Assembly: GCA_964106915.2 (NCBI GenBank)
Contig: OZ066916.1
Direction: 5' to 3' (one strand)
Length of the DNA stretch: 64,000 nt
From: Podarcis gaigeae
Taxonomy: Eukaryota
This document shows positions 14,774 to 40,341 of this stretch, in pieces. The position numbers and the translations under genes are program-made. The notes beneath the pieces were generated by a model, which ran no database searches, had not been told where the DNA came from, and saw only the letters and a list, made by a program, of their open reading frames with translations. Within the stretch, counting starts at the first letter, position 1. Every line of letters starts with the position of its first letter.

Positions 14774-14936
14774 AGTTACAGATAGGTAGTCGTGTTGGTC
14801 TGCCATAGTCAAAACAAAAAAAATTCCTTCCAGTAGCACCTTAAAGACCAACTAAGTTAGTTCTTGGTATGAGCTTTCGTGTGCATGCACACGAAAGCTC
14901 ATACCAAGAACTAACTTAGTTGGTCTTTAAGGTGCT
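14774..14936 (-). mobile_element. Penelope-like element pLTR fragment, fold-back copy 1
   Basis: Starts agttacagataggtag... like the copies at 25.2 and 38.8 kb; perfect 102-bp palindrome 14835-14936; direct repeat ctccctacagcagtt at 14763-14777 and 14935-14949. Confidence 0.85.
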
Positions 14937-17900
14937 CCCTACAGCAGTTCTGGAGGGAAGGTACACACACACACACACACACACACAACCCTACCATGAA
15001 ATTCAAGTGCCCCTGTGACTTTGAAGAGGTCAAGTAAGAGACCCATGTCCTCCTACCATGATTTGTGCAAAATCTTTATTGGATCCTTCTTGTCAAACTT
15101 GTCAGGATGATCAGATGCATTTTATGTCCTTTTACTCCTTTCAGATCAAAGTGCATCTATATCACTCTCACTATGACCAAGTACTGTGGTGCAGCAAGTA
15201 AAGTCAACCATTAACTTGAGCTCAGACACTGTAATTTTTCCCTTTGGAGTTCGTCACATGATTTCATCTTTTAAGCTGTTTGTGCCCATTTCATTTCACT
15301 CTATGCCAATTTTTATTTACCTTAATCTATTCTATTCTATTCTATTTTCTTTATTATACACACTTGGATAATGTATATTATGTACTTCTTATTTTGTTTT
15401 CTCATTGCTGGTCATTGACCACAACAATAAAGATTTTACTTAGCAATGCATAAATGGAAACTTGTGCTCCCTGTCCCTGCCCACCTGAGTCTCATTTGAA
15501 GGGAAGGAAGATATGAATCTTGTGAAATGGTCCTCTACCCACTTTGGACAAGACCTGGAAGTGCATGAAAAAGAAGGGGGGAAACATTGTAACTCTGCTC
15601 TGGCTACCTCCTATGAACATTCAAAGCAGCTGTTAGCTTTCAGCCTTAACTACAGCACTTACTAGCTAATTATTTCACCAGATCTCTCTCATGGACTTGT
15701 TGGTTCCCCACTTCCCTTGCTACTGATATAGACCAACTGCAAAGCTGGCACATTGACTGTTTTTGACGGGAACTGGCATTTCACTGCATTATGCTACACA
15801 CATTTGCAAATATGCTATTTATCATCTTGTTTTGCATCTGTGATTACTCTCTTGCTTTTTAATTATAGATTAGTGCAGAGCAAAGCAAATTGCTGGATGG
15901 GACCCAAGGACAAAATATTACTTCTTTTTGGCTTAAGAGAAATTGGATCAGAGACCAGGAGGTGAGCCTTGATTCTCGATAACATTTCCACTCTGGGTGT
16001 TTCATCTTGTTGCTTCTGTGTTGCAATGTAAGCCTTTTAAATCTGTTCAGACTGCATATACCAGCAAAAGAACAGAGGACAGCTGGGAGTTGCCTGGATA
16101 CCTTTACTCCAGGCAAGTGGGTGGGGTTGAAGAACGAGCTATGACATTCTGTGCAAATTGTACTTCCATTTATCAAGGTTTTCAGAATATTCATTCATTT
16201 ACTTAGTTCTTCAAGCTGTTGTAGGATAATCCAAACCCTGGCTGGGAAGTGGTGATGTGTGGTGAAATGGAGAAACCACAATATCTGCAGCCCTGTTGCT
16301 CACACCTGGGAAGGTATGCTGGGGGAAGAAAGGCAAATCACTCCGTCAGCCTGGAGACGGTACAGCCATTGGCCCTGGACGAAGCCCAGTGTTCTCAAGG
16401 GATGGAAGTGGAGTCAGCTGGGATTCAGCAGATCCCTGGCATGGCTCAGCCCATCCTACAGAACAGCCCATTTTGTGGCATTCTGCAAGCTACTACTGGC
16501 AGAGATCCCATTAGCAGTACTTCCACTCACCTGCCCATTTGGTGGGTGGAAAGGGGAGTTGGTACCGCTCTGTGGGCAGAGGTCAGCAGGGCTTGATGAA
16601 CAAAAACTCCCACCCAGTACAGTCCCTCTCAAGCTGGTACAAGAGGCCTTTGGATTGCAGCTTAAGCACCACCCTTCATTGAAAATTTCAGGGTGGATTC
16701 CCCTAAGGTTTCCATAAAACAACAATACAATAACACCAGGGGGAAAATACAATATAAACAGTAAGAAAATACAAATACTAAAAGCTAGGAAACAACAGTA
16801 GTAAATGCTTCAGTTAATAAATGGGTCTTCAGCCAATCAAGATGCCTACCTCACAGCTAGATAGGAGCTGATTCCAAAGGCTGGGAGCCACTACAAAAAG
16901 ATCATTCGTCTAGTTGTCTCCAGATGGATTTGTGTAGGCTGAGGGACAACCAGGAGGGCCTGAGCTAATGATCTCAGTGTATGGGCAAGCCAGAAAAGTA
17001 TTCTCTTGGGTCTTGTGGTTAGATTTAGGAACTTAAGAAAAGCCTGATGGATTAGGCCAGTGGCCCATCTTTCCTCTCCTATGGTTTCAGCAACTGATAG
17101 CATACAGCCTCTGATGGAGGAGATGGGTAAATTTATTAAGGGATAGAAAATACAAGAGAACAGCTGAAAACTCGAAAAGTAATGAACAGAAAATCCAGCT
17201 GGTCTTGCATTACTTTGCAGCCAAAGCCCGGCTCACCAGACATGGTTAAGAAGAGCCAATGCAGCTCAGTGAAGGTTCTTGACAACTGTCAAGGATGTAG
17301 AGACATATTTTTTCAAGAGACAGGTCAAGTGACAGGTTATACTTCCTCAGAAAAAAGTGATGCAGAGCTACAGCAGGCAAAAGCCTGTAGCTGACACAGC
17401 AGGTTTGGCAGCATACACATTGCAGGTTCATAGCACATTGCAGCTCTCAAACGCTTTAGCCATATGTCAAGTGGACACCCAGCCTTACAGAGCTGAACTA
17501 CAGAAGGAGCAACCTTAAGTGCCTTTTCACACATTATGCAGAGGCAAACCCAGGTCTGCAAGGTCAAGAGGGAGCCACAGCCAGTCTTACAGATGTGTGT
17601 ACAATCTACAGTCAAATCGGTGGTGATGTTGCCTGACGTGTGTGCAGGACTGGGCATGGTGCCAAATCCCTAGAAAATGGCAAGGGAGACTTGGAAGCAC
17701 AGCATGGGCATATGGGAGATAATCTAACGTGTGAAAAAGGCACTTAGGGTTGTTATTTCATTTTAAACATGTGTTAACTAACGTTCATTAAGAAAAAGGG
17801 GGAAAGACTACCATGCACCATACCGCATTGATCTCCCCAGTGCCTCACTCTTCTTGGGAAACGGCAGTGACCCACTGTGTTGGGAACCTAGGAAAGCAAT

Positions 17901-18525
17901 GCTGCCCAAACTGTACGACCTCAGCAGGTTATCAAGAAGAGAAAATGGAGGGGAGGGACTTGAGCTCATGGGTTGAGTGTGTGCTTTGAATGTGGGAGAT
18001 CCCAGTGCCTCTAGTTGAAAGGACCAGGTAGCAGGTAAAGTAAAAGACTCTGTTGTCATTTTTAACAATAATGGGCTACAGAGACAAATTTTCTAACCTG
18101 GTATAAGGCACCTTCTTTCATTCATGTGCCTACAACACTGAACTCCAGGGGCCGGATAAAAATGTAGCTATTAAGGACAAATTGACTGTGAATTCATGCT
18201 CTTGAGGCCTTGCCACATTTAGCCTGAAAGACAGGGAAGGAGAGAGTCCCATGACTGGCCTTCATAAATGCTGCTCCTAATCTCGGGGTGGGGGGAAGGG
18301 GCTGGGCTGGCAATTTTACATAACACTGTATGGTACATAGAGTTCTATGGTTCCTGCCTGGAAGACTTGCAATTCATTTCTTCACCACCATTAATGAGCC
18401 CCCTGAAGTGAGGGCAATGTGCCTGAAAAATCTCCAAGTGACTTGACCACACTGCTGCCCGAGGCAGCTGCCTCTGTTTGCCTAACAATAGAGCTGGCCC
18501 TATGTGGGCCAAAGTATTGACTTAA

Positions 18526-18672
18526 AATCATAGAATCATAGCATTGTGGAGCTGGAAGGGACCCCAGTGATCATCTAGTTCAACCCCTTGAAATCTTTTT
18601 GGCCAAAGTGGAGCTCGAACCCTTGACCTGAGATTAAGAGTCACATGCTGTACTGACTGAGCTATCCCAACT
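18526..18672 (-). mobile_element. tRNA-Lys(CTT)-derived SINE with CR1 3' tail
   Basis: Minus strand GGGATAGCTCAGTCAGTACAGCATGTGACTCTTAATCTCAGGTCAAGGGTTCGAGCTCCACTTTGGCC resembles tRNA-Lys(CTT); it is followed by a CR1 end with CTATGATT repeats. Confidence 0.8.
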
Positions 18673-18761
18673 TGGTAGAAGGCAGCTTCACGGAAGTCCT
18701 CACCCCATCCCTTGGCAGCTCTGATGTCAAAATTATTATGAGCACATTCCAAAACAGGCTT

Positions 18762-18940
18762 AGGGGAAGGGCTATAGCTCAGTGCAAGCAGAAGGTTGCA
18801 AGTTCAATCCTGCCATGTCTATGTAGGGCTGGGAGAATCCCTCCCTGAAACCCTGGAGAGCTGCTACCTGTCTGTGTGAACAACGCTTATCTAGGTGCAC
18901 CAAAGGTATGACTTGGTATAAGGTAGCTTCCTATGTCCCT
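18762..18940 (+). mobile_element. tRNA-derived SINE with ...cttcctatgt(t/c)cct tail
   Basis: Head ggggaagggctatagctcagtg, B-box-like gttcaatcc; decayed relatives at about 17975-18125, 19531-19720, 23113-23232, 27558-27736 (-) and 52597-52760 (-). Confidence 0.75.
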
Positions 18941-20845
18941 GTGACAGCCCCTCCTTTCTCTCCTCTTGTTAATTCTGATTAAGAAAAGATGGATATTCTA
19001 AGGACTGGTCATTAGGCTTCTATGCAAATTAATTAAACATTGTGTTTAACAGCTGACCTTCTTTCACATGGAGTTTGGAATCACATCTTACTTTCATATT
19101 CTGCTTTAAGAAATGATGTGTGAATATCAAAAGGCCTCATTCTCTTTCATTAGTAAAGGGCCAGGGAACACAGCTGGCAGAGCCTCTGCAAAATCTGTTA
19201 AAACAGAAAGCAAAGAACTGTGAGAAAGTGATGGGAATTCTGATCTTAAGGCTGCATTATTCACCAAGTATATAGCCAGTGAGTGTTTTGCAATATGTTG
19301 CACTGCGTCATAGTATTGGTAGTATCATATTGTGGAAAAACATAATATAATAGGATTAGAGGAGATGACAGTATCAAAATAGACAAATATAGATTGCATG
19401 CTGCAGCCTGAGAACACTGGAAGGTGCCAAGTGAGTCTCTGTGGGGAAGCTGTTCCATAGCCGGGTGCCACTATTGAAAACATGGTATGTAAAAAAGCTT
19501 CTGACTAATTCTCATAAAACCTTCAGAAGTAGGGGAAGGGGTTGAAAGTAGAAAACATTCTCTGCATGCACAGAGTTTCCCGTATCTCACTGGTATCTCA
19601 TGGTAGGACTAGAAAGAGCTCCTGCTGAAGCTTTAGGTGACTATTGCCAACAATGTAAAGAATACTAAGCTAGATGCGTCAATGGTCAGAGTCAGAATAA
19701 GGCAGCTTTCTATGTTCCTAAACAGATCAATAACCCATAGCGACCTTGTGAGTAAAGATTAACACCCTTGTAATCCATTTTCACAAGAGGAGTAACTTGT
19801 GGTTATGTTGTTCTGACAGGGGAAAAAATCAAACACAATTCTCAAAAAGCTTGGATTCTGATCAAATGAATTATACAATCAGCCCCCACAAAATGTGCAT
19901 AGCATCAATATTCCATCTGAACTTTTAAGATGTCATTTCAAGGCTACAATGATGTCTTCTAAATGGGCACCATCGTAGTCTCTCTGCCAACTAGGGAGTC
20001 AGAATGTCTGAGCTACAGTTCACTAGGGCTGTTGGACCCAACATGAAAAGAATTCCATCTGGTTCAATGAGATTCCAAGCGCAAAGATCAAATTGAAATA
20101 CTCCCACATTTTTCTGGCTGTTGCGTTTTGTTTTTTTTTAACTGCATAACATCTACAGGTTCCTTCCTGTTTGGAAAACATCAGATAAAATATTCATCTC
20201 CTGGCCCTGTTAAACTAAACACCATAAGGTCATGGATTTAAATTCTCTTGTGGTATGGTGAGAACTGATGTGACCTCCCCCCACCCCCTTTTTTTCTACA
20301 TTACCTAAGAAAAATGGCAGCAATTTTAATATGTACGTGGCAGAGCATTCAGTTAGTTTAAAGAGCCAGATGCTCATGCATAAAGCTAAAGCTGTTAAAG
20401 TTCTCCAGTAAACTTTCATATAAAGAAGGCAAGTAAATAAATCGGTAGTACTGAAATACTAACAAAAATTCATAGAATCAAATCAGAACAGAAGACTAGT
20501 CCAGCAACTAGTTCTCAGAGTGGCCACCCAGATGTCGGTAGGAAGCTCACAAGCATTGCCATGACCACGATATCATTCTCCCACTGCTTTCCCCCAGCAA
20601 TTGGTATTCAGATTCATACTGTCTCTGCCCCTGCAGATAGCCATCGTCACTATTAGACACTGAAAGCTTTATCCTCTATCCTTCTTAGTGTGCCTCCTCC
20701 ACAAGGGGTCCAGACTTTGGTGGGCGGCAACATGAGAATGGGCCTTTTCTGCAGTGGCTCCCCATTTGTGGAATGCTCTCCCCCAGGGAGCTTTGCCTGG
20801 TGCCTTCATTGTACACCTTGATATCTATGGGTATGGGACAGTATA

Positions 20846-21071
20846 GAAGAGTTTGGATTTGATATCCCGCTTTATCACTACCCTAAGGAGTCTCAAAGCG
20901 GCTAACATTCTCCTTTCCCTTCCTCCCCCAAACACTCTGTGAGGTGAGTGGGGCTGAGAGACTTCAAAGAAGTGTGACTGGCCCAAGGTCACCCAGCAGC
21001 TGCATGTGGAGGAGCGGAGACGCGAACCCAGTTCATCAGATTCCGCTTAACCTCTCTTAACCACTACACCA
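20846..21071 (-). mobile_element. MIR/Ther1-derived CORE SINE (Squam3-like)
   Basis: Minus head TGGTGTAGTGGTTAAGAG (A box), GGGTTCGCGTCTCC (B box), CORE-like gtgaccttgggccagtcac; sits within an L2 remnant. Confidence 0.8.
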
Positions 21072-21265
21072 TACAAATTTAATAAATAAATAAAATTTGT
21101 CAGATCCCTTTTTAAAGCTAAATTGGTGGCCATCACTCTATTTTGTGTTAGTAAACGGCATTAACCCTGCATTGTGTAAAGAAGTACTTTCTCTTGCCTG
21201 CCCTGACTCTCCCACTATGATGCCAACATCCATTTTCTGGTCATTCACTGAGTTTCAATGGAGGG

Positions 21266-21904
21266 GGTAAAGGTAATGTAAAGGACCCCTGGATGGTTAA
21301 ACACTTGTTGTTGTTTAGTCGTTTAGTCGTGTCCGACTCTTTGTGACCCCATGGACCAGAGCACGCCAGGCACTTCTGTCTTCCACTGCCTCCCGCAGTT
21401 TGGTCAGACTCATGTTTGTAGCTTCGAAGACACTATCCAACCATCTCGTCCTCTGTCGTCCCCTTCTCCTTGTGCCCTCCATCTTTCCCAACATCAGGGT
21501 CTTTTCCAGGGAATCTTCTCTTCTCATGAGGTGGCGAAAGTATTGGAGCCTCAGCTTCACGATCTGTCCTTCCAGTGAGCACAGTCAAAGGGAATTATGG
21601 GGTTGCAGCGCTCATCTTGCTTTCAGGATGAGGGAGCTGGCATTTGTCTACAGACAGCTTTCCAGGTCATGTGGCCAGTATGACTAAGCTGCTTCTGGCA
21701 CAATGGGACACTGTGACAGAAACCAGAGCACACGGAATTGCCCTATTTATCTACTTGCACTGGCGTGCTTTTGAACTTCTAGGTTGGCAGGAGCTGGGAC
21801 AAAGCAATGGGAGCTCATCCCATCGCAGGGATTCAAACCGCTGACCTTCTGATCAGCAAGCCCAAGAGGCTCAGTGGTTTAGACCACAGCGCCACCCACG
21901 TCTC
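21266..21904 (-). mobile_element. Sauria SINE split by a Bov-B insertion
   Basis: (ACCTTT)-type tail at left, tRNA-like head with A and B boxes at right; homologous to the 48.4, 62.7 and 63.6 kb copies. Confidence 0.88.
21305..21582 (-). mobile_element. Bov-B LINE 3' fragment nested in a Sauria SINE
   Basis: Minus ORF KLRLQYF.HLMRREDSLEKTLMLGK...; (TTG)n at the left end. Confidence 0.95.
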
Positions 21905-22024
21905 TCATGTAATTGGTTTTGAATATGCAAAGAGATGTGAATACGTAACAGGCTTCTGAGAGAAATTCAACATTGCTCTAGACAGGGCAAGCATTTCAAC
22001 TTGCCCCCGGTCTCCTCACCATGT

Positions 22025-22316
22025 GCACTGTTCCTGGGATTCCTGCAAAGGATCCTATGAACCATAGTTTGTCATGGGCATTGAAAGTTGTTAGTAGACA
22101 ACTATTCCCCTCACAGAACCACAATTCCCAGAGTTCTCTAGGGAAGAGGGATTAATTATAAAACCACTCTGGGTATTATAGTTCTGTGAGGGGAAAAGGA
22201 GTCTCTAATAACTCTCAGCGCCCTTCATAAACTACAGTTCCCAGGATTCTTCGGGGGAAGCCATGGCTGTTAAAGTAGCATAATAGATCTTTCAGTGTAT
22301 AGTGTTGATATGGCCT
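22025..22316. mobile_element. Palindromic non-autonomous DNA element (family not assigned)
   Basis: Nested inverted arms: cctgggattc/gttcccaggattc, cccctcacagaac/gttctgtgagggg, cccagagt/actctggg. Confidence 0.6.
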
Positions 22317-22754
22317 GAGGCACCGCAATGCAACTGGGAGTGGTTGCAGCCGCTCTTGAGGCCATGCATGTCATCCATTTAATCAAACCTAAAATCTAAT
22401 TACTCCACTTTTCATCTGGTCAGTAGATTGCAGCTGAACATGTAACCTTCAGCATCATGGATCCTCAGCCTTGAGTGGTGCTACACACTCCAAATTATTG
22501 CGCATCCTTTGATAATAAATGGTGATGTGTCAGTCACCAGTCATGTCATTTGAGAAAAGGAAGGCTCTAAGGAATAATGAAATAGTGCTCTTCTAGTTTA
22601 ATCAAATATTCAGCAAAGAATGCCAGCAACTATTACAGACAAGTGAGGTTTTTCCAAGGGACAGTAACTTAGGAGAAGCTCAGAAATCTGACAGCCTATT
22701 ATATAACCGGTAATTTCATTAAAGTACTGCTATTCCCTGAATATCTGACAAGTG

Positions 22755-22756
<2 letters not shown>

Positions 22757-22795
<39 letters not shown>

Positions 22796-22819
22796 CATAC
22801 ATACACACACACACACACA
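22757..22819. repeat. (GT)n(GC)n(AC)n compound repeat
   Basis: Directly visible; continuous purine-pyrimidine alternation. Confidence 0.9.
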
Positions 22820-23845
22820 ACTTCCTATGCACTATCTCTGACTCTCTGGAAGAGCCAATAATCTCTATTAGGCCCTCCACAATAGAGCACACACAAAATT
22901 CCCCTTGAAGGGGCTGGGCACCCACAAATTTTAGTGCCAGGTCTATGCAACCTGCATGGCACTCATGGCCCCGGGCACCCACGGTCACGGGGCCACATTG
23001 GCACTCCTGTCACTAAGACCATAACTACCAATCCCTCTTATTCATTGTGTGAGGGTGTTAGTGGTCAGCCAGAGGCTACAGATGGCAGTGTGGAAGTTCA
23101 GGTGTTATCTAGTGGGAAGGCTGTCACTTCATGGCAGAGCACCACCTTTTGCATGCAAAAGGTTCCCATTTCAATCCCTGGCATCTCCAAGTAGGACTTG
23201 GAAAGACTCTGACTTGAAACCCTGCAGGAAACCACATCCTCAGGGTGCTCATTCAGTACCAGGGACAGAGTATGTAGCAAGAAGAGTATGGAGCGACACA
23301 CACACTTGTGGCTTCAAACCTGTCAGGCAGTTTACCCTTCGTGACTCTAGTCAATCTCCTCGGCATGATCTCTGGTATCCCCTCTGACCACTAGGACCTG
23401 CTGCGTCTTTTGAACCTTACAGAGTAGTTATACTGAAGTAGCTCTAGTAAGACAAATTAAACCCAAGTCTGCATACAGTTAAGAGCTGCACTGTGTAAGG
23501 GTGCTAGGCAGCCAACTCCTACTCAGGGTAGTCCCACTGACATTAATGAACCTAAATTAATCCCATCCGTTAACTCCAATGGGTCTCTTCTGAGTAGGGC
23601 TAGCATTGAACACCACCCTAAATTTTCATAAGTGGACGCTGGGTGGGTAATGTGTGTCCAAACTGTCCTTTGGAGCAGCTCACAGACTTCCCTGACCAAC
23701 CACTTAGTCGTTTTAGGGATTAGGAGACCCTTTCTCAGCTAGATGACTAGATTAGGTACTAGATCATGCAGCAGCTTGAAGTTGATAGTTTCCATGGGTC
23801 TTACTCCCTGCTAAAGCTGCAATCTTAACCCTATTTACCTGAGAT

Positions 23846-23991
23846 CAGTGGCGTAGCGTGGGGGGTGCATGGGGGCCGGCCGCACCTGGCGCAACATCTG
23901 GGGGTTAGGGTTAGGGGGCGCAAATCCACGGGTTAGGGGATGCAAATTACTTGCCTTGCCCCGGGTGCTGACAACCCACGCTACGCCACTG
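23846..23991. mobile_element. hAT-type MITE containing TTAGGG units
   Basis: Perfect 17-bp TIR CAGTGGCGTAGCGTGGG; 8-bp TSD cctgagat/gctgagat. Confidence 0.88.
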
Positions 23992-24611
23992 GCTGAGATT
24001 AATCCCCAATTGAATTCAGCAGGATTTAGCTCTGAATAGACATGGTTAGGATTGCACAGTTTGTTTGCATAGGACTTCGGCCTTTAAACAGCAATATCTT
24101 TCAATGTTTTGAGCTGCTTTGTGGACTTGGTCACAAAGTGGGCTACAGAGCTCCTCACTCCAGCTGCACCACAGTGCTTGCCTCTTTTCTCTATAGCTGG
24201 AAATTAAAAGCCCTGTGAGTAGGAGGAACCCTGGCTTTTGTTCTTTCGGTGCCTGGTGACAAGGAGAAACGCAGAAAGAAAATCTATCACAATAGGTAAA
24301 TGACAGCGAGCATTAAACGGTATTAGAAATTGTCTTCACAAAGACAAACCCCAGTTTTATTGTAAATCTGTAATAGACTTACAAGGTTTTGTTCTGTCAT
24401 ATTTTCCATGCCTGCTTACACTCAAAAAAATTGGTTGGCTTTTTAATTGCTACAATTAATTATAACATTTCATAACGAATTCATTTGTGGGCGTAAGTAG
24501 CTCTCATTTTAAGATGTTGTGACAATGAAAAAGAAAATCAAAATTTCATTTTAAGGCAACACATGGTTGTTGTTTTTTAATAGCAATGGATCTGACAGCT
24601 CTTAGGTTTTA

Positions 24612-24615
<4 letters not shown>

Positions 24616-24651
<36 letters not shown>

Positions 24652-24667
24652 TGCTACTACTACTATT
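24616..24667. repeat. (TTA)n(CTA)n microsatellite
   Basis: Directly visible. Confidence 0.9.
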
Positions 24668-25235
24668 AAAGGTGGCATTGTGTTCTTGTGATTTTGCCAC
24701 TTTAAAACAGAGCTACAACAGAACAAAATCATTAAGTAATTCTCTGTTTTCTTCTGGGTATTCAGGAACACCCTGAAAATAGTGTTTTGCCATACAAAGC
24801 TTCCATATGTGATATACAGCAAGCCTGCAACTTATGTGGGGGTTACATTCTCAGGATCATGCCTAAAACCAAAATTGCATGTTGTCAAAACACATTGGGT
24901 GCAGTGGTGGGTGGGATTGCCAAAGAAAGGCTTTCCCCTCAGATGCCTACCCCCTTTTTAAAAACATATAAAAATTGTCAGGTGCATAAAGCTGAATGCG
25001 AACAAGTTAAATGCTTGTACGTTGTGGGCTTACTGTAATTCGAAGGAAAGGAAAAGGGAAGTTGGAAGTGACTTGTGGCAAAGGAGAACTGGCTTAATTC
25101 TTTATTATTTATTTATTACATTTGCACCCCACCTTTCTTCAAGGCGTTCAGGGTGTTGTACCTGCTTCTCCTCCTCCTCCCATTTTTTCCTCACAAGAAC
25201 CCCGTGAGGTATGTTAGGCACCTCAACTTAACTCA

Positions 25236-25432
25236 AGTTACAGATAGGTAGCCGTGTTGGTCTGCCATAGTAAAAAAAAAATAAAAAATCCTTCCAGTAG
25301 CACCTTAAAGACCAACTAAGTCAGTTCTTGGTATGAGCTTTCGTGTGCATGCACACTTCTTCAGAAAGCTCATACCAAGAACTGACTTAGTTGGTCTTTA
25401 AGGTGCTACTGGAAGGAATTTTTTTTTTTGTT
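25236..25432 (-). mobile_element. Penelope-like element pLTR fragment, fold-back copy 2, nested in a decayed MIR/Squam3-like SINE
   Basis: 54-bp perfect inverted arms 25289-25342 and 25364-25417; direct repeat tcaacttaactcaagtta at 25223-25240 and 25433-25450. Confidence 0.85.
25331..25364 (-). ncRNA. Hammerhead core lacking the 5' strand of stem I
   Basis: Minus strand reads CTGAAGA A GTGTGCATGCACAC GAAAGCTC ATAC; the upstream GTAT is replaced by the inversion junction. Confidence 0.6.
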
Positions 25433-27085
25433 TCAACTTAACTCAAGTTATGGTTCAAGTGGAGATTTGCATATCATACTCCCAGGTTGTAGTCCAACAC
25501 TTTAACCATAACTACTACACCACACTTGAGATAGACCTGAGTTTCATACTAATATGAAAGCTGCTTGTCCTATTCTTGACTGTGAATGTTAAAAGCCACA
25601 GCAGATGCATTCATCCAGGCTAGTGGGCCATCAAGAGGAGTCTTTCCTTCTTCCGCATGTAGGTAAATCCGGCACTTCAAACTATGAAATAAGACTGCAA
25701 ACCAAAGAACACTTACTTGGGAGTAAGTCCCACTGGACTCCTGTGCAGAATAGTGCTATAAGTGTGTTCTCTGGCCAACCAGTTCCCTGTGATTTCCTTC
25801 TTCTCATTCTCATGGTTTTCTGAGCAGACACTTCATAATGGAAAGCAGATGGCAAGCATGTCCCTCTGCTCAGGATGAAAGAAATGTGATAATTATACTT
25901 TGTGCCTCTCACTTACCTTCCACTTTATTGCTGACCTAGTTGGACGCCTTTCTCCAATCGCCTCCTAAGATGTCCCACGGTGTGTGTCTTCGCTCTTCTC
26001 CCTGTCTTACAGTGCACGTTGGTTTTAATATGGACCTTGTGTTGCCTTGCTGGCAACAATCTCACAGCACTCATGGGAGAATTAGTCATACTGAAAACTA
26101 GGTATACACAAGCAGGAATACTGTAGAAGGCAGCGCTTTTTTCCCAGGGGTACTCAGGGGTACACAGTACCAGCACCTCTTTTTTGTTCTTTTCAAAAAG
26201 AAAAACTTCATGGTGAGTACCAGAATCTATTTTTTCTAGGGGGAAAAAAAGCTGTGGTAGCAGATAATTAGAAACATCAGATTTGCAGGGATTGGGGTGA
26301 GGAAGGTCAACAAAATATAATGAGAGATTTTTTCATAGTGCAGATACACTCTAAAACATTAAACATGCAATGACCCTTAAAAATCTGCTATATAGGCAGA
26401 GCATGAGAAAGCTAGAATGACTGTATTGAAATGGTCTAGAGTTCAGCAATTTTCCTATTGTGCTTCCAGTGGCTTTTCTGTTCAGATGCTTAAGAGAATA
26501 ATGGAGATTTTTATGAAGACAGAAGTAAACAGAGAATCTCTAAGACCCACTGCCATTCTTCAAGTCATTTGCAGCCTGAATATGGTCTGGGGATAAAAGG
26601 ATAAGAGAACTGCACTCATTCTCTGAGGCCACAGGATGTTTTCAGACAGACTTTCAAGAACCCCAAATGCAAGTATCTGGAAAAAAACACCTGCTACATC
26701 TGTTAAATGACAACAAGGAGACTTGTGGCACCATGACGCATTATGGCCGGGACTGCCAATATCATGCCTGTGGGTACACAGATATGGCTTTGAGGACTTT
26801 CCCTGGCACCTGTGAAGTCTCTGATGCTCTAGTCCTTAATTTCTCCATTGTCATAAAATGGTGTGGTGACTACCTCCCCCTCCCCCTGCCGCAAAGAAAG
26901 TTCATAGTGTAGTAAGAAGGAAGGAGAGAAAGGAACAGAAAGGAGAAAGGGATTCAGTGATAAGAGATGGCATGGAATAATCTGGGAGAGTTGGGGGGTG
27001 CGCAGAAGGGAGCGATCGGGAGGTAGGTAATCAATTTGGTGTAATCAGCAAACTTGACTGTCTCACTGCTCACCCCACCTCCATG

Positions 27086-27930: not shown

Positions 27931-27933
<3 letters not shown>

Positions 27934-27994: not shown

Positions 27995-28001
<7 letters not shown>

Positions 28002-28722
28002 GCTGGGGCTTCCCTTGCTCTGTTTCTCCACCATATATCAAAATTTGATTAAATTAGAAATTTATAGGCTAGCATCCTTGAGCCTTATATCATAATTTAA
28101 GTGCTTCTTAATTCTCAAGCTGCCTAAACCTCTGCTCTTCGATTTATCTACCAGGATCTTTTTTCTGTGAATAATTATCAGATACAAGCGGTGTATAATT
28201 TAAAGGCAAAGTTGAGCAGACAGTCAGGGCTCCTACGATGTTGCCTGAGACCCTGTTGTGCTTTTTAAAGAGTTGTGATTGTGTGAGAACTCATTTTTAA
28301 AAATCTGCTGAGTACTCATCCCTAGCTAGCAGGAACAGTGATCAGGGATGATGGGAACTGTAGTCCCAAAATTGCTGGAGACCCAAGTTTGGGAAACACT
28401 GGTTTAAAGGTATGCATTTGAGCAGGTTTGATAAGACAGGCTTAGGCTTCATTGCAGTTGAAAATAAGGTTAAGCAACAGGCTTCATTGAAGTAGGCAAC
28501 AGGGCTTCATGGAAAAGTTATCCCAGAACATAAGAAGAAATATGTTGCACTAAAGGTCCATCTAGTCTAGTTTCATGTTCTCACAGTGGCCAACCAGTTG
28601 CCTATGGGAAGCCTACAAGCAGAATCTGAGCACAGCAGCCCTCTCCCCACTTGCACTGCCCAACAACTGATAGCCACAGGCCTTATGCTTTTGATCTTGG
28701 AGGCTATATAGGCATCATGATC

Positions 28723-29216
28723 TTGTTGTTGTTGTTGTTTAGTCGTTTAGTCGTGTCCGACTCTTCGTGACCCCATGTACCAGAGCACGCCAGGCACTCC
28801 TGTCTTCCACTGCCTCCTGCAGTTTGGTCAGACTCATGTCTGAGAACACTGTCCAAGCATCTCGTCCTCTGTCGTCCCCTTCTCCTTGTGCCCTCCATCT
28901 TTCCCAACATCAGGGTCTTTTCCAGGGAGTCTTCTCTTATCATGAGGTGGCCAAAGTATTGAAGCCTCAGCTTCACGAACTGTCCTTCCAGTGAGCACTC
29001 AGGGCTGATTTCCTTCAGAATGGATAGGTTTGATCTTCTTGCAGTCCATGGGACTCTCCAGAGTCTCCTCTAGCACCATAATTCAAAAGCATCAATTCTT
29101 CGGCGATCAGCCTTCTTTATGGTCCAGCTCTCACTTCCATACATCACTACTGGGAAAACCATGGCTTTAATTATACGGACCTTTGTTGGCAAGGTTATGT
29201 CTCTGCTTTTTAAGAT
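28723..29216 (-). mobile_element. Bov-B LINE 3' fragment
   Basis: Homologous to the other Bov-B copies; small internal deletion near 28840. Confidence 0.95.
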
Positions 29217-31111: not shown

Positions 31112-31715
31112 GACTACAGTGCAGTAAAAGCACTGGAGATGATACAGGAATTCGGACAGGTAGCAGGATTTAAGCTAAATAAGAGCAAAACCAAAGTTTT
31201 AGAGAAAAATCTGGATATTGAGGAAAGGAAATTATTACAAGAAAAGACAGGCCTAGTTTTTGTGAAAAAAGTTAAATATCTGGGGGTTAATTTGTCGGGG
31301 GGAAATTTGAATTTATATAAAGATAATTATGAGAAATTATGGAATGAAATTAGGAGGAGTACCAGGACGATTGGATGAAATTCAAAGACTATTTAGTTAA
31401 ATATGCTAAGATAATTTAATTGGAAAAACTTGCAAATACCAGATAGGCTTAGGATTTAAATATGTGACGCTAGAAAATAAAATGTTTAAAGTTAAAATGA
31501 AAAGGAAGAAAGATGTTAAGTGACTAAGTTAATTTTGTGAGAAAATTGGGTTTGGAAAACTGTTACAATGATATACAATGAAACTCAGCCAGGGGGATTT
31601 GAGGAAGTCATTTAACAATGTTACTAAGATTGGATTAAGTACAGTTAAGATCTATGTTTGTTTGTTTAAAATTTTGGAAAATGAATTATTTTTTTTTGAA
31701 AAAACAAAAAAAAAC
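31112..31715 (+). mobile_element. L1-clade LINE, 5'-truncated and internally deleted
   Basis: IQEFGQVAGFKLNKSKTK...VKYLGVNL...YKDNYEKLWNEI is the end of the L1 RT domain; A-rich tail 31699-31714; TSD ctaaaagcata at 31101-31111 and 31716-31726. Confidence 0.87.
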
Positions 31716-33529
31716 CTAAAAGCATATGGGATTTATTCAAGATACACAGCCACACAGAAAACAATGGGGATATAGAGAATATGGAAGTAGAGATTTAAAA
31801 CTGCTCCTCAGTAACTACTGTATTGTATTATCAAGAAGGAGACATTTGATTTTAAGCAGGACCTACTGTGTTCACAATACAATCTTGTGAACTTGATATG
31901 GAACCTAGTCTGGATGAGTTTCTTGTTCTACAGCATAAATAAAATGGTGAGCAATATGCTTTCTCGCTCCTCGAAACCTCAGCCTACTAGTCACAAAAAA
32001 AAACCATCAACCCACTGAACAAAGGATGCAAAATTCTTATTGTGAGTCCTATCTAAGGAGCTATTTTAGAGGGGAGCATCATTCTTCAAGTTTATAGAAA
32101 GTGGTGGTTTAGAAGCACTAGAATGAGCACCACAGAATCCATTTAACCAATAGCAAGGAATATATATTAGGATCAGTCCAAAGGCCAATCTAGCTGAATA
32201 TCTTGCTCTCACTGTGGGTAACTCTCCCCACTTGTAATTCCCAGAAACATAGTGCCTCTAACAACAGTTAAGTTAGAACATAGTCAGTGGTAGCCAGCAT
32301 TTTCCTCCACGAATTTGTCTAACCATCATTTAAAGCCATCCAAGTTGGGGGCCGTCACAACATCTTGAAGGAGCAAATTCCATAATTTAATAATGTACTG
32401 TGTGAGTAAGTCCTTTATTTTATCTGCCCTGAATCTTTCAATATTCCCCTTCATTGGATGGCCACAATTCCAGTATTATGAAAGGGGCAGAAAAGTGAAT
32501 AGGTCTACAGTCTCTACCTAAAGGGCACAGATTGTATACAGTCTACACTGGGTGGAAAGAGCTTTACAAAGAAAATGGACTGTAAGGGACAGGAAAGAGA
32601 AGAATAAACAAGTTGTGAGTATGTGGTAGAGGAACAAGACTATCTAGGAGAAAAAGTTGCAGCAAAGAGGAGATTGTACTAAGCCAGAAAATGAATTTGC
32701 AAACAGTGGCGATCATCACAAAGAAAGCCACCCAATGTTTGGATGAGTGGTGACTGATCACTCAGTATTTTCTAATATGTATGAGCCAACTTGAACTGGA
32801 AGCAAGTGACAAACCTCTCTTGTTACAAATCAAAGGAACAAATCAAGGGCAGGAACATCTTCTGCTTCTTTGCCTCAAAATGTTCTACTAAACTCATGGA
32901 GAGAATGCAGGATTTTGAGCACGGCAAAAATGCAGGAAATGGTTCTTCTTTTATTCTTAAGCAGCCTGTGACCTTCAGCACCCGCAAAGAACAAAGAGGG
33001 AGGTTTTCTAACCACTTTGATAGCAGTGTTCACTTTGGAAGAGATTGTATTGAACCAGTGTAATAAAAGATCTTGCCAGAGAAATAATTCCTGGGTGTTC
33101 ATATACTGTCTTGGGGAAACTGTCCAAAACATAAAATGAGTCAAGAAAAGGCCTGTTGGTTTCTGTTTCAGTTCATCTCCTCTGTGTCCATTGAACTATG
33201 GTTTATTAAATCATGGCTTAGCATTGTGTGTGAATCCTCCCCACACCTTAACCATGTGGTTTTTTTACCCTCAGAAAACTACTATCTGAAGCTATGGTTT
33301 GTTATTGGCTTATGGACTTTCATTTGTTTTAACTATGGCTTGATATTATATGCAAGCACAACATCCTTATCCATGGTTTGTTTGACCACCCCACCTCAGA
33401 TGGTTACCATGGCAAGACCACTTAAAGAAAATAAGAAAAACGTGGATGAAGCAAGCCATGGTTTATCTTATCATTCATGGGACAACTTGTGATAACTTGT
33501 GGGTTGCTTAACAAACAATGACTTAGGAT

Positions 33530-33691
33530 CAGTGCTTTCTTCTGGGGTACGCAGGGGTATGCATACCCCTAAACATTTTGTGAATCTTTGTCCTTTTGTC
33601 CTTTTACTGTATTTATTTTTCCCAATTTGAACTATAAAATGGTGATTTTTTAGCCAAAATGAGGGACATTTTAAGAAAAAAAAGAGCACTG
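33530..33691. mobile_element. hAT-type MITE (CAGTGCTT...AGCACTG)
   Basis: TIRs plus TSD cttaggat/cttagaat; shares tacccctaaacattttgtgaatct with 47468-47617. Confidence 0.8.
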
Positions 33692-34149
33692 CTTAGAATT
33701 ATGTGCAAAGGAGATCTAATGTGGTCTAATGCCCCTTGTACAATCTTGTCAAAACTAAGTACTTTAGTTTAAGCCTTCTCAGGGCTTCTGAAATCAGATC
33801 TATTATCAGCATGTACCAGATGAGAAAGGTTCCATAATACTTCCATAATACAGGGAATCTGGAGAAGGAATGTAAAGTTAGAAGAAAAGAATTTGCTACC
33901 ATCTGCTCTTATGAATGCCTTTTGAGGTGGCTATTCTTGGGTCCCAGACACAAATTGGATGATGAATGTTAGAAGCATCACAATCTCATCCTGCCTACAC
34001 ACACCATTCTGAATTCCTTTCATTGGGGAAAAAGTGGTTTCACAGTTATTGTTTTCTTTAAGGCTACCTAGGCACACTAACTGAATACTAGTCTCCTCAT
34101 ACATTTATAATCAAATTTGAGAACACTCTCAAATTCTGAATCCTATAAG

Positions 34150-34634
34150 CCAGAACAGCAAGAGGGATCTGCCTTCTGGCATACCGTGTGGCTGTTCTAG
34201 CTTCTGGGATAACCATGCCAAGCCTCTTCAGGGCAGTGGGATGAAGGCTCTCCCTGCCCGAAGAGGCTGCGCACGGCTAAGGCAGAAGCCAGGATAGGCG
34301 CGTCGCCCCTTCAGCGAAGCTGGAGAAGGAACAGAAGGAGAACCTTCTGTTCTTCCTCCGGCTTTCAGGACAGCCACGTCGCTGAAGGGGTGCTGCGCAG
34401 TTCTCCCTCTCCCTTCGCAGGAGAGGTGCTGCGCAGAGAGGGAGAGCTGCGCAGTGCCCCTTGAGCGAAGCGGGAGGAGGAACAGAAGGGGCTCCGTTCC
34501 CCCTCCCGCTTTGCTGAAGGGGCGCTGCGCAGCTCTACCTATCTGCGCAGCGCTCTTTGCTCCACAAGACGCACTCATATTTCCCCTTACTTTTTAGGAG
34601 GAAAAAAGTGTGTCTTATGGAGCGAAAAATACAG
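34150..34634. mobile_element. Tc1/mariner-superfamily non-autonomous element, right part, GC-rich interior
   Basis: Ends gtcttatggagcgaaaaatacag-TA, a terminus resembling that of 50591-50726; CpG-rich internal repeats (gctgcgcag); left TIR not found, so the left boundary is approximate. Confidence 0.6.
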
Positions 34635-34884
34635 TAATTTTTTAATCACACACTGTGCAGACATACTTGCAGAGATATGGAGTGTTGTTATAGAGATTTT
34701 TGAATGAGAATGACTCAAAGAAAGATGAACAAGGAAGAAAAGGTGGCGTCTCCACTTCCATGGTGCTTCTTTGCTATGCTTATATTTGAATGAGTTGCAT
34801 GATGGGTGGTGGGGTTTTTTGTTTTTGTTTTGCAATCCCTATTAATTACAGTGATCAGAGAAAGTTATTGTGAACTCTGCAAAG

Positions 34885-34890
<6 letters not shown>

Positions 34891-34934
<44 letters not shown>
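34891..34934. repeat. (AG)n microsatellite
   Basis: Directly visible. Confidence 0.95.
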
Positions 34935-34938
<4 letters not shown>

Positions 34939-37088
34939 CGTTTCAGCTGTCAGTAGTGAAACTAGCAAATTGTTTGCTAGGGGAATAGCCTGGGGGGAAA
35001 TACGATGCCTAATTAAGAGGTTCTTATTGAAGGGATTGTGAGCATTTTTGCTTCATCAGCAAGGTATCAGCACTATCTTTGGAACCATAATCAAAACTGT
35101 GCTCATTAGCACCCATCTTTTACACTTTCTGAACTGCTTTAGATTTCAAAGAAAAATTCTACTGATGCGTCTCAAACAAGGCTAACCGTTTGGAAGGTTT
35201 GCATCTGAAGAAATACTCCAGAGACCAGGACCTACTTCTCGCTTAGGTGGTAAAACCTGTGTACGGGCTTTATTATTTCACACCAAATAGAAATTGTACA
35301 TGTAGAAAACTAGCTTGGGGAAAAACAATAGCTCATTAGTAGTGTCCTGCTTTATAGAGGACACTCCTCTATTTGAGGGCATCCTCTGTCTCAGGTGTGG
35401 GGAACCGTGACCCTCCAGGCATTACTGAACTACAATTCCCTTCAGCCCCAGCAAGCATGAGCAAAGGACCCCAGAAGACCAAAACTTCCTCACACAGTCC
35501 AATTCCAGGCTCAAGATAAAGTCTTGATTGCAAATTGGTTGGGGAAGATAAGAAGGCAGAGTGGGCAACCTTGAAGTTGCTCATCAACTTGAAGTTAGGA
35601 GCTGGACAGTAGGCTGAGCAGGCATACAGGTTATCCGGTCACAATATTGATCTCTGCTATGGTGAGATGTATTGCATTTCTACTTAATTACTTCCTAATT
35701 TGCATTTATGAATATAAATCAGCACATGCAAATCTGTGTCCACCTTTTGGTGATGCCTTTCCTCTTTCTTGGCAATGCATGAATAGCTGTCCTACTCTAT
35801 GGCAGAGCCAGGAGTGGAATTAGCAATTCAAATTGTACCATACATTCTGAGAGCAAGTGTAGCAGCTAAGCACCAAAGTTAAGCCTGCACTCATCTATGG
35901 TGGCTTTAGCAGTTTAATCTTTTGTCTTCCCATACAATCCCTGCTAAGAAATTCTGGTTGTTGGGACTGCCCCCTCACTGGCATCCGGGCACTGAAGAGT
36001 ATGGAGGCTCACCACAAGGCAGTGGGTTCCTTTTGAGGTCAGCCCCAAAGGAAAACACCACAAGATCCCCTTTGAGTTGTAAAATATGGGAAGACATGAG
36101 GGTGAGGGCACCATTGCCTTGTGGGATTTGCCACAGATAAGAAAGGGAGTGTGTCACACAGGTGAGAAGCAAGAGAATGGAGGTGCGGTCCTAAGTGAGA
36201 AACAGGCCCACCAGGTATCTCCCCTGTTCTAGGGGAAAGATGGGAGAATTGTTATGAGGAGGCCACCTTGGGGAGAGGAAGGTGAAATTGACCTGTTCAC
36301 CAAATAGGCATGGCCCCTGAGCAGGAACCTCCAAATTCACCAAGATTCTATTTGGTGAAAACAAGCAGTGCCCCAAATGGAACCACCCAATATCCCACAA
36401 GCCAATATTGTTCTGGTTTTGACCTATGCAGCCCTAAAGGTTGTCTGGGTCATTGATATTATGGAATAAAAGATGCCTCATAAAATCAAGAACATCTTGA
36501 AGGGGTGGGTGGGTGAAGACCTGGTGAGACGTGATGGAGGCCTGGTGAGCCAGGCCGAACATTTGCTGAAAACATTTTTTTAAAATAAAACCATCTTTCC
36601 GCACGTCAGAGACAAGAGGAAGGCTGCCAGTTCTAGTTATGCCATAATTTAGTTATGGCTCTGGGGGCTGACACTAAAAAGAACACGTTGCCAGTTTATT
36701 GACTACAGCTATTTTCCACCTCGCATAGCTCTACTTTAGTTTGATTTGTGTCTGTGATTCGAGCAATAGGTTCCTTCGGACAGCTCTGGAAAGAGGAAAA
36801 TAATGAGGTTTCCTTGGGGAATATTTCCGAATCAGTGTGTGCTAGGAAAAGGAAATCTTGCTCCTACTTACGAGGTGATGCCAGTGTTTTGGAGCACTTG
36901 CAGACTATGTGTGACAAAGGAACGGGAGTTTTAATAGGGCTGTTCAGAGTAAGACTCCAATGACAGATTCCTGGCATACATTTCAGGAATGTATTGCTTA
37001 CAAAAGAATTCAGTGCAGGCATTTTATTCTTTCTTTCTTTCCTTCTTTACTTTTTTTTTTACTAAGGCTCTTTCACCTCTTTGACAAG

Positions 37089-37431
37089 CAGTGGCAGAGG
37101 AAACTGCTTGGGCTCCTGGGGCGGCGAGCCCAGGGGTGGGTGAGCCGCCTATAGAGGTGGGGCGAGCCACACATAGGGGCAGGGTGCACCGCAGAGCCTC
37201 TGGAGCCTGCCTGCCTCCTCCCACTCAGCCACCCTACCCTGGGGGAGGAGGCAGCGGTCAGATCGTTTGAGCAGCACGGAGCCTGCATGAACCCAAGCCA
37301 CGGCCAGGAGAGGCGCGTGGCTCAGGCGCGCTGCAGGCCCTGCGGTGAGTGCCCCCCGGCATTTTGTCACCCCCCTCAGTGGTGACACCTGAGGCAGACC
37401 ATTCCCACCGCACCTCCCTTCCTCCATCCCA
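37089..37431. mobile_element. GC-rich hAT-type MITE
   Basis: Starts CAGTGGC; perfect 8-bp TSD ttgacaag at 37081-37088 and 37432-37439; right TIR decayed. Confidence 0.75.
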
Positions 37432-37593
37432 TTGACAAGGTCCCAGCTAATGGATCCTTTGCATGCAAAGTGTAATTGGTTTTTTAAAAAAGGAACCACA
37501 TCTGACAATGTCAGAAAAATATCACTTTTCAGAAATACTTATGATCTTGATCGAAAGGCTCTATCATTTGGCAGTCACACTTACAGGTTAAAA

Positions 37594-37729
37594 CAGGCAC
37601 CCCCAAACTCGGCCCTCCAGATGTTTTGGGACTACAATTCCCAACGTCCCTAGCTAACAGGACCAGTGGTCAGGGATGATGGGAATTGCAGTTCCAAAAC
37701 ATCTGGAGGGCTGAGTTTGGGAATGTCCT
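37594..37729. mobile_element. Palindromic hAT (Charlie-like) MITE
   Basis: Long imperfect hairpin (cccaaactcggccctccagatgttttgg ... ccaaaacatctggagggctgagtttggg); relatives at about 28315-28402, 35392-35490, 37940-38048, 41951-42070 and 50177-50265. Confidence 0.75.
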
Positions 37730-38495
37730 TAATATTCCTTTACTTACCACCCCTTTCCTTGGTAACTGACATGTTCAGTTATAGAGGAGGCTACTACGCA
37801 AACACAACACATTCATTCCACTCATCCATCCCATTTTCTGGGAATACTTTCCCGTTCCAAAATGGCACGGGGCTGGAAAGATAAAAGGAGAAGGCACCAA
37901 GCAGAGAGCTGTTCTCAGATGTTAATCTCTCTTGTTGATCTATCTAGATGTTGCTGGACTCCAATGGTCCAACAACCAACCAATGGTCAGGGATGATGGG
38001 AGTGGTAGTTCAGAAACATCTGGAGAGTCACTGGTTCCCCAGCCCTGGTATACAGCATGCAATAACTTCCTCCAGTATATTTTCTCAGCAAAGTGAGTGA
38101 CTTCAGATAAGGGGGAAATAAGCAAAGGAAGAATAGCTTCAAAATAGTACTAAGAAGTTCATCTTTACCACATACTTACTAAAAACCTGAACTGCATTTC
38201 AGCTGAGGCCAGTCAAAGGCACTGAAAAAACAAGCAAATAAACTGAAACACAAGTGATAATGGACATTGGCATACCTTTTAACTGGACAATATGATAAAA
38301 TAAATGCATTATACACATTAACGCTAATCATAACGCAAACTAATGCCATACAAAATAAATCTGTTGTACATTACAATATATGCCCCTTTTTGAGGTTATA
38401 CTTTTTAGTTACTTTTCACTTGCAATAGTCTACTTATTTAGAACAAAAAAAATTCCTTCCAGTAGCACCTTAAAGACCAACTAAGTTAGTTCTTG

Positions 38496-38533
38496 GTATG
38501 AGCTTTCGTGTGCATGCACACTTCTTCAGATAC
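38496..38533 (-). ncRNA. Second, identical hammerhead motif on the opposite strand (inverted arm)
   Basis: Exact reverse complement of 38692-38729. Confidence 0.78.
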
Positions 38534-38604
38534 ACTGAAGAAGTCTTCCTGTAAGACCTATTGCAGTCGTTAAGAGTCGTCAACAGGCTCATCACAGCTA
38601 TCTG

Positions 38605-38691
38605 CCAATCACCCATTCCCACCACCCTTCTGAGTAATACCCCTCCCCACCTTCTCACTATATAGAAGGGTCTGGAAACTTCTGTTTCAGT
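38605..38691 (+). promoter_or_regulatory. Putative Pol II core promoter in the Penelope pLTR
   Basis: CCAAT 38605-38609, C-rich Sp/KLF-like box 38640-38651, TATATAG 38659-38665 and Inr-like TCAGT 38687-38691 (A at 38689, 30 nt after the TATA start). Confidence 0.5.
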
Positions 38692-38729
38692 GTATCTGAA
38701 GAAGTGTGCATGCACACGAAAGCTCATAC
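38692..38729 (+). ncRNA. Minimal type I hammerhead ribozyme motif in Penelope pLTR
   Basis: GTAT (stem I) - CTGAAGA (CUGANGA core) - A - GTGTG CATG CACAC (stem II) - GAAA - GC - TC (cleavage after C38725) - ATAC (stem I'). Stem III is reduced to the palindrome AGCT. Confidence 0.8.
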
Positions 38730-40341
38730 CAAGAACTAACTTAGTTGGTCTTTAAGCTGCTACTGGAAGGAAAATAATTTTTTGTTTTGACTATGGCAGA
38801 CCAACACGGCTACCTATCTGTAACTACTTATTTAGGTTTTGTTTTTACTAGGTTTATTAATTGAATAGAAATTCCCTGTTTTTTTTATGCGTATTTGCTG
38901 CTGATGTTTTAACCCACGTAAACCGCTCAGAGATTTGTTTAAATATAAATATCTATTGCCCCAATAAAAACACAAACAAACAAACAAACAAACAAACAAA
39001 TAAAATAATGAAGTACTCAATATTGTGATATAGATCTCTTCATATGCATCCTTAAAAGAAATTATATGTGGTTACAAATATGATCTGTGGCGCTTTTGAT
39101 ATACGGCGGGGGGCGGCGCAACCAGGGGTTTTGAAAACTGGAAAGAACTAAAAGTATTTTTGGAGGGTGCTTGGGACAACAAGGGGAGGAGCAAAATCTA
39201 CTTCTTTCCTTTTCCATTTGTTGAGGTGTTCACTGGATCAAATTGTATTCCACTCTAAATATCTTTTTTTGCTAAGTACTAAGGGAGTGCAATGAAACTA
39301 TCAGAAATGTCACTACTCCATTTCTACTGCTTTTCTCTTTATCTTCATTAACTTCATTCAATCCATTGCCTGGATTTCCAGTTCAAATTAATATTAGTCA
39401 CCAGAAGACATGTTTGCAAACTGCTTCTCTCTAGGCCTTAATTATTATGCAAACCATCTGGCCTTTTTGCTTGCATTGTTTCCTTTTATGCCTTTTCTTT
39501 ATAACAACATAATTGTCTTTAAAGATCTGTTTCAACATCTTTGAAGCCTGAGCAGGATATCTTTAACAACTTTGAGATCTTATTTAAATATATGCAGAAA
39601 ATTCCATTCCATTTTTAAAATGTGGCCTGGAAATCAGAACTGAAATGTTTTTTAAGAGGTTTAGTTGGCTTCATCCCAATATTTATTTAATAAAATAGTA
39701 TGACCAATGCAGCTCTAAAGGTTGTCTTGGACATTGATATTATGGAATAAAGGATGCCCCATAAAATCAAGAACATCTTGCAGCCCTCCTGTGTCGGGGG
39801 GGGGGGGGAGACATGAACCAAATAATCATCTGGGACAGGGTGATGCTTTAGTAGTATATTCATCCATTTTCATTTCGGTTATAATATTTTTTTCTGTTTC
39901 ATTTCTCTATTTAATTATGTTAGCTCGGTCATATTGGTTTATATCAGGGGTGGGGAACCTCAGGCCCAGGGCTGAATGTGGCCCACAGGAGCACTCAGTC
40001 TGGACCATGGAACATTGCCTAAAATAAAACCCTAACCCTCCTTTAGTCATTTTACTTGGCTAGAAAGTATCCTCGAACTGTGATCCTATCTCTAGCTTGC
40101 CTGAATAGATGATGGAAAATGGCATGTGTGTCTCAGCACATCTCCTTTTACCACATCCACCAGTTGTATGTGGCCCCTGGAAAGTTGCCCATGAGGGAAT
40201 CTGGTCCTCTGGCTAAAAAAAAGGTCTCCCATCCCTACTTTATACAGTGTTGTTTTTTTGTTTTGTTTTGTTTTGTTTTGTCTATTAGCTTTCTTACCTG
40301 CTGGTGTGTTTAAGCTGTTCATTAGGTTAGCTTCTTTGTAT

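Follow-up and report, generated by a model that had tools for sequence, protein, structure and literature searches.

The window analysed here, a stretch of 64,000 nucleotides (nt) of Podarcis gaigeae DNA (contig OZ066916.1 of assembly GCA_964106915.2), contains three short repeats of one common sequence in a head-to-head layout (14774-14936, 25236-25432 and 38442-38825), each flanked by a target site duplication (TSD). These repeats are copies of a Penelope-like element (PLE), and their inverted structure is probably the product of twin priming on a single capped sense RNA, with run-off at the RNA 5' end and subsequent joining by microhomology. Under this mechanism both ends of the cut target would prime complementary DNA (cDNA) on the same RNA, each cDNA would run off just before the core of the hammerhead ribozyme encoded in the element, and repair, presumably host end-joining, would connect the two cDNA ends, at times via the palindromic stem II of the ribozyme. 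Both arms would derive from one RNA molecule, which requires displacement of the first cDNA wherever the arms overlap, while cleavage by the ribozyme would not be needed. Most products would be short because priming is internal, only ~130 nt from the RNA start. The rule that governs the junctions is itself real, being set mostly by the likely RNA start and partly by palindromes, with ribozyme activity probably not involved.

Longer genomic copies also include, further upstream, a frame that has a YIDD motif and matches the Pfam GIY-YIG domain. One of them (L049) has a 379-aa frame with the YIDD motif and a GIY-YIG match above the cut-off (E 6.3e-6); no Pfam reverse transcriptase (RT) domain was matched on this partial frame. 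The family is a PLE of Penelope/Poseidon build, its clade being suggested by domain order and by likeness to Poseidon of Anolis carolinensis (PAc). An optional 30-40-bp tail, an inverted 5'-truncated copy and a TSD, which characterize the pseudo-long terminal repeats (pLTRs) of such elements, are found among the 98 insertions sampled below; the element itself is new within an already known family. The sequence reads as a minimal type I hammerhead (CUGAnGA, GAAA, UH, stems I and II, and a minimal palindromic stem III). Stems I and II form in the predicted fold, which is not unusually stable (z -0.16), and an Rfam scan gave no hammerhead match, only hairpin look-alikes below threshold. Positions are numbered from the C of the CTGAAGA core (+1, window 38696), so that in the third copy a position equals the window coordinate minus 38695. 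The reference features, all on this copy, are:

38659..38665, plus strand: TATA-like box, -36..-30, with a putative function.
38689..38692, plus strand: likely RNA starts at -6 (A) and -3 (G), placed by arm ends and an extra G.
38692..38729, plus strand: predicted minimal type I hammerhead motif with stem I, CUGAAGA core (38696-38702), stem II (38704-38717), GAAA (38718-38721) and predicted cut at 38725/38726, from sequence, fold and the description in PMC4209133.
38785..38825, plus strand: tail between two putative priming sites, by analogy with PMC11167929, with a likely start codon of the open reading frame (ORF) at 38793.

A 31-nt tail pattern has 4,570 exact matches in the genome, of which the first 100 on contig C1 were parsed and 98 kept, after removal of L098a (the same insertion as L098b) and of L049 (which runs beyond the ruler). 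Seventy-eight of these insertions are inverted and 20 are not; L096 was scored as non-inverted and the inverted arm of L114 was placed by hand. The TSD measures 12-14 nt in 67 of the 88 insertions with a TSD call. Thirty loci from a DNA similarity search, whose query favours long arms, were left out of the counts, and in the list of arm pairs long arms with a substitution near the core are mis-ended (e.g. the partner in L093 truly lies at -235).

Arm ends pile up just before the ribozyme core. Indeed, 65 of 176 arm ends fall in the five bases -6..-2, corresponding to a stop rate of 0.15 per nt, as against 0.002-0.009 in all bins outside -9..+3. Among the 67 inverted arms ending in -150..+70, 43 do so in -9..+3 (P 3e-36 versus a uniform distribution), and 52 of 78 inverted arms end in the same 35-nt span in which an earlier, sequence-only reading of the window had located all three of its inversion junctions. 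Its suspicion that three out of three was non-random is thus borne out, the window copies being typical of their family, and instead of the uniform spread of breakpoints that it had set against its own claim the sample displays a peak before the core. The same reading had taken the RNA 5' end as the place where cDNA stops; this is well supported, but the stops lie at -6/-5 and -3, not at -9, and they also act on non-inverted copies, of which 11 of 20 end at -6..-2 (ends in -9..+3: 12/20 non-inverted versus 43/78 inverted, Fisher P 0.8). Genome-wide, at least 3198 arms end exactly at -3, versus 1922 that are intact past -22. Pattern counts, which are rough because the patterns differ in length and gap, gave 1,693 loci with both arms reaching +1 and a spacer of at most 30 nt, 683 with both arms to +22, 47 joined around the cleavage site and 106 further downstream. 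Raw RNA reads (mostly host transcripts with embedded copies) likewise show loose ends at -3/-2 as well as strand-switch joints, and the pile-up is therefore not made by assembly.

Several signs point to a capped RNA start at these bases. Arms ending at -3 are preceded by an extra G that is not part of the element in 16 of 20 cases (P 2.5e-5), and in 73 of the first 100 of the 3,198 genome-wide arms (counted by eye). A deletion variant as the source of this G was ruled out, since none of 100 listed long copies carries it. For L1 and SVA, an extra G has been read as the copied cap (PMC2912911). A TATA-like box stands 30-33 nt upstream of the presumed starts, and we infer that transcripts with a cap begin at -6 and at -3. 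Ribozyme stem I likewise opens with the G at -3; the junctions would lie at the edge of the ribozyme because the RNA likely begins there.

That the two arms were copied from the same RNA is suggested by a marker at +43, at which the family is split into 45 G and 41 A: the arms agree in 48 of 50 pairs and, by eye, in 47 of 47 symmetric joins of the cleavage zone, although shared alleles are also compatible with the same source locus rather than the same molecule. Where one arm ends at -3 plus G, its partner ends at -4 or shorter in 12 of 14 cases. In 34 of 78 insertions the inverted arm extends over 10 nt beyond the 5' limit of the tail arm (the reverse holds in 11), and for these 34 a fold-back of the tail arm is excluded as the source because the inverted arm is the longer one at its inner end. 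In six of the 78 the tail arm stops at +77..+95, where the other arm begins, which is the classic twin-priming shape. The outer ends are fixed at two places about 35-45 nt apart, namely the tail end (+126..132) and a U-rich tract (~+84..97), and match the two internal priming sites of anole Poseidon (PMC11167929). Arms that abut with little duplication, as in L1, are confined to 6/78, most insertions having the stretch between the start and about +85 in duplicate; the likely mechanism is a form of twin priming other than that of L1. Filler occurs at 48 of 78 junctions and is often copied from nearby sequence, as is expected of end-joining repair. At five loci (L046, L073, L074, L091, L118) it consists of repeated copies of a 15-30-nt 5'-terminal segment, as if the enzyme had re-primed repeatedly at the template end. 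Overall, the evidence favours a sense template over antisense self-priming.

The role of stem II is divided. The sequence-only reading had proposed it both as a cDNA stop and as the site at which the two halves are joined. As a joining site it is upheld: 259 loci carry a join exactly on its axis, a roughly 10-fold enrichment, and such a join is seen in 15 of the first 50 loci in this zone versus 3% expected (P 1e-11), albeit as a minor class among the sampled inverted insertions (3/78). As a stop it is not supported, with a rate of 0.008 per nt at +8..+22 versus 0.15 at -6..-2. Inner ends in +4..+95 belong to the joining step and not to stalling, because they are absent from non-inverted copies (0/20, versus 33/78 long arms of inverted copies; P 1e-4). 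Since pairing between two cDNAs of like sense is limited to self-complementary stretches, stem II offers a ready 14-nt overlap. Other symmetric sequences are used as well, e.g. an AGCT spot in 8 of 47 joins of the cleavage-site zone and +39..+51, outside the ribozyme, in 13 of 50 downstream joins (both by eye). Flanking direct repeats of 12-16 nt are present at 13 of 15 axis loci, some with one-sided changes. Arm divergence is 5/378 versus 4/459 bases (redone on +36..+62, the first version being inflated by short arms; 1/15 and 3/20 loci dropped), so that axis copies are not detectably older in a test of little power.

The predicted cleavage site, named beforehand as a further place at which breakpoints might peak, shows no clear excess: by eye, 12 of 100 listed ends (of 196 in +26..+38) lie at +31, 1.6-fold over the zone mean (P 0.08), while the top bin is the AGCT axis (17/100), and both arms end at +31 in 4 of 47 symmetric joins. 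A small fraction of RNA cut by the predicted self-cleavage is possible, yet cleavage is probably not what drives the junctions, in agreement with its dispensability in vitro for anole Poseidon (PMC11167929). The link to the ribozyme looks positional, the ribozyme starting at the likely first base of the RNA.

Of the three copies in the window, the first inverts on the axis of stem II, as had been claimed, with perfect symmetry over 51 bp on each side of 14885/14886, the centre of the 14-nt palindrome 14879-14892; this junction is known from the present assembly alone. The second inverts, also as described, with a GA microhomology at 25364-25365, its long arm ending at 0 and its short arm at +23. 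For the third copy the description holds in part: the inverted arm does end at the edge of the ribozyme, but the long arm ends at about -149 (38546), outside it. Reading the arm to 38539 (-9) is possible, but an end at about -6 fits better: bases 38535-38544 fold back perfectly onto 38520-38529 over 10 bp, and this accounts for five bases more than the reading to -9. A long RNA with one priming event close to its start and another in the downstream pLTR would fit this copy. The parts of the copies are:

14765..14777, unstranded: left TSD of the first copy, its last 4 nt overlapping the tail end of the element.
14774..14892, minus strand: long arm of the first copy, +9..+126, ending in the tail.
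14879..14892, unstranded: junction of the first copy, the 14-nt palindromic stem II common to both arms, axis 14885/14886.
14879..14936, plus strand: short inverted arm of the first copy, +9..+66.
14937..14949, unstranded: right TSD of the first copy.
25223..25240, unstranded: left TSD of the second copy, with a 5-nt overlap with the tail end.
25236..25365, minus strand: long arm of the second copy, 0..+126.
25364..25432, plus strand: short inverted arm of the second copy, +23..about +90, with the GA microhomology at 25364-25365.
25433..25450, unstranded: right TSD of the second copy.
38430..38441, unstranded: left TSD of the third copy.
38442..38536, minus strand: short inverted arm of the third copy, running from about +90 to -6, or to -9 on the reading that extends to 38539.
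38535..38544, plus strand: junction filler of the third copy, a 10-nt fold-back copy of 38520-38529, from its sequence a probable product of snap-back synthesis.
38546..38825, plus strand: long arm of the third copy, -149 to the tail end, with 3' untranslated region/pLTR, ribozyme and tail.
38824..38835, unstranded: right TSD of the third copy, with a 2-nt overlap with the tail end.

In these copies and at many other loci the TSD overlaps the last 1-5 bases of the element (14774-14777, 25236-25240, 38824-38825), which may hint at short pairing between target and RNA at priming, although no such pairing is reported in the anole Poseidon paper (PMC11167929).

Four other explanations can be weighed against twin priming. 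The reading given in PMC3846280, by which a single strand (cDNA or antisense RNA) folds into a hairpin at a palindrome and is extended on itself, the inverted arm being a copy of the first, would account for the alleles common to both arms (48/50), for the 33 of 78 arm pairs that end within 10 nt of each other, for the common short snap-back fillers, that of the third copy included, and for the 259 perfect fold-backs on stem II. It is unlikely nonetheless, because in 34 of 78 insertions the inverted arm includes sequence that the tail arm lacks (11 in reverse), the inverted arm has a fixed outer end of its own, six of 78 pairs hardly overlap, the non-inverted copies end at these bases too, and the extra G sits at the sense 5' end. 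We consider it improbable that the ribozyme sets the junctions, either by stalling the RT at stem II or by providing RNA cut at +30/+31. The roughly 10-fold enrichment of the stem II axis and the ends at +31 (12/100 listed, and 4/47 symmetric joins with both arms there, by eye) would agree with such a role, but the latter are only 1.6-fold over the zone mean (P 0.08), no stall excess is found over stem II, 47 loci join in the cleavage zone versus 1693 at the start, 13 of 50 downstream joins (by eye) use symmetric sequence outside the ribozyme, and cleavage is dispensable in vitro (PMC11167929).

A splice acceptor (AG at -6/-5), which would make the template a spliced or splicing-derived RNA instead of one with a capped start, seems no less improbable. 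It could draw on the pyrimidine tract and CAG at -16..-5, on the Penelope intron of D. virilis that ends at helix I (PMC4209133) and on the lack of the extra G in the -5 class. However, no upstream exon common beyond one base was seen in 25 arms at -5 or 20 at -3, none of the 15 joints listed (of 18) is a forward-skipping RNA joint into the site, and the TATA spacing fits a start. Finally, we give very little credence to assembly collapse or to post-insertion deletion of the hairpin spacer as the origin of the junction peaks. In an insertion with both arms reaching the start, the 14-nt palindrome occurs twice, as direct repeats on either side of a hairpin, which may be a plausible substrate for deletion, but loose ends at -3/-2 and strand-switch joints are present in raw short reads, non-inverted copies without a hairpin have the same peak, the axis loci have flanking direct repeats (13/15, 12-16 nt, some with one-sided changes) and are not detectably older, and only the axis class (3/78) could be affected.

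Twin priming on a capped RNA has its own difficulties, and the following observations weigh against it. Allele pairs disagree in 2 of 50 insertions, and the partner of an arm ending at -3 plus G runs past the start in 2 of 14. Overlap is only 0-1 nt at 19 of 30 filler-free junctions, a modest microhomology. The largest end class, at -5 (25 in the sample), is preceded by T and not by G in 19 of 25; this T stands in place of the element's A, for which untemplated addition or slippage are only suggestions. The -5/-4 boundary can also be read as a splice acceptor, and the D. virilis intron ends at helix I (PMC4209133, PMC2377424). No pile of molecule starts at -6..-3 was seen in four raw RNA runs, in which embedded copies in host transcripts dominate; in these runs, possibly from a different species, 74-87% of the matching sequence continued into unlike (host) sequence. 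The stem II axis class could also arise by later deletion between palindrome copies, and the sample, i.e. the first 100 exact tail matches on one contig, is biased to young copies.

Some insertions continue beyond the tail. In 24 of 30 such loci (L160-L189, chosen from 163; two of the 24 are one insertion) the unit ends at +162..+204 and is followed by a new unit from about -7..0, and repeated units inside one insertion have the same joint (L167, L173, L087). This suggests jumps from the RNA start to a 3' end or circularisation at that point, rather than closure at the ribozyme cut site as PMC4209133 proposes. The units hint at a short RNA of 170-210 nt or at end-to-end template jumps. L087 (G000:C1 near 11281245) comprises five tandem units of ~120 nt that share one joint and have a gap within the unit after about +96; it is retrozyme-like, but the ribozyme cut site is not where its units are joined. 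At about +200, toward the far side of the range of tandem 3' ends, a splice-donor-like CAG/GTACAG occurs (L166), with three joints on or beside it. More tentatively, and in our judgement just short of an even chance, twin priming could be programmed: one complex would prime one capped RNA twice at fixed sites ~40 nt apart, its 5' segment would be copied a second time with displacement of the first cDNA, and a jump from cap to 3' end at +162..+204 would build the head-to-tail tandems. If so, one rule would yield tail, inverted pLTR, palindromic junctions and tandems, the ribozyme would sit uncut where the RNA begins, and thousands of insertions would preserve a fossil map of start sites in the genome.

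Apart from the PLE, the window holds a young interspersed repeat family with 89-95% identity between many copies (9487-9829, 12677-13035, 21305-21582, 28721-29216, 40336-40831, 44780-45177, 60152-60651). Two PLE insertions 23 kb apart (G000:C1 15004016 and 15027157) share the same junction filler in opposite orientation and likely reflect a local duplication.

The origin of the inverted and tandem structures of PLEs has been called undefined (PMC8557442), and PMC3846280 leaves open whether they stem from antisense self-priming or a sense template. In literature of partial coverage (PLE reviews of 2005-2006 fall outside, and supplementary figures of PMC11167929 may show a coverage drop), we found no paper that places PLE junctions at a capped start or invokes twin priming for these elements. 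Very short PLE insertions are reported from an alga (median 128 bp, PMC9977147), and related work is given in bioRxiv 10.64898/2026.07.22.740005 and 10.1101/2024.12.14.628481. A family with more than 4,570 young copies provides base-level statistics that separate the models, and the predictions suit the existing in vitro Poseidon system. Twin priming would explain a long-puzzling feature of PLEs without ribozyme cutting, and it bears on how a telomerase-related enzyme behaves at the 5' boundary of its template and on whether the ribozyme cuts during transposition.

The closest known system is PAc, which shares the Penelope/Poseidon RT with a C-terminal GIY-YIG domain and a ribozyme in the pLTR. 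In vitro, its protein cuts and extends both strands, two internal priming sites flank the tail, and cleavage is dispensable (PMC11167929); in contrast, its ORF starts at stem II, whereas the likely start here lies in the tail, and the accessible part of that paper contains no mapping of inversion junctions, RNA 5' end or cap traces. Inverted 5'-truncated pLTRs of other PLEs (PMC8557442, PMC3846280) have the same head-to-head arrangement, optional tail, TSD and palindromes at the junction, but the palindromes were read in PMC3846280 as self-priming on a likely antisense template, where we favour a sense, likely capped, template primed twice. The minimal hammerheads of PLEs (PMC4209133) show the same conserved core, a long stem II preceded by an unpaired base, and a palindromic minimal stem III; tandems were there derived from cleavage and circularisation, while the joints described here lie at the RNA start and at +162..+204. 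With L1 twin priming (PMC2912911) the family shares priming of one RNA from two target ends, microhomology joining and the extra G as a copied cap. It differs in that the second priming site, internal and variable in L1, is fixed here like the first, and in that its arms in most cases overlap and may both extend as far as the RNA start.

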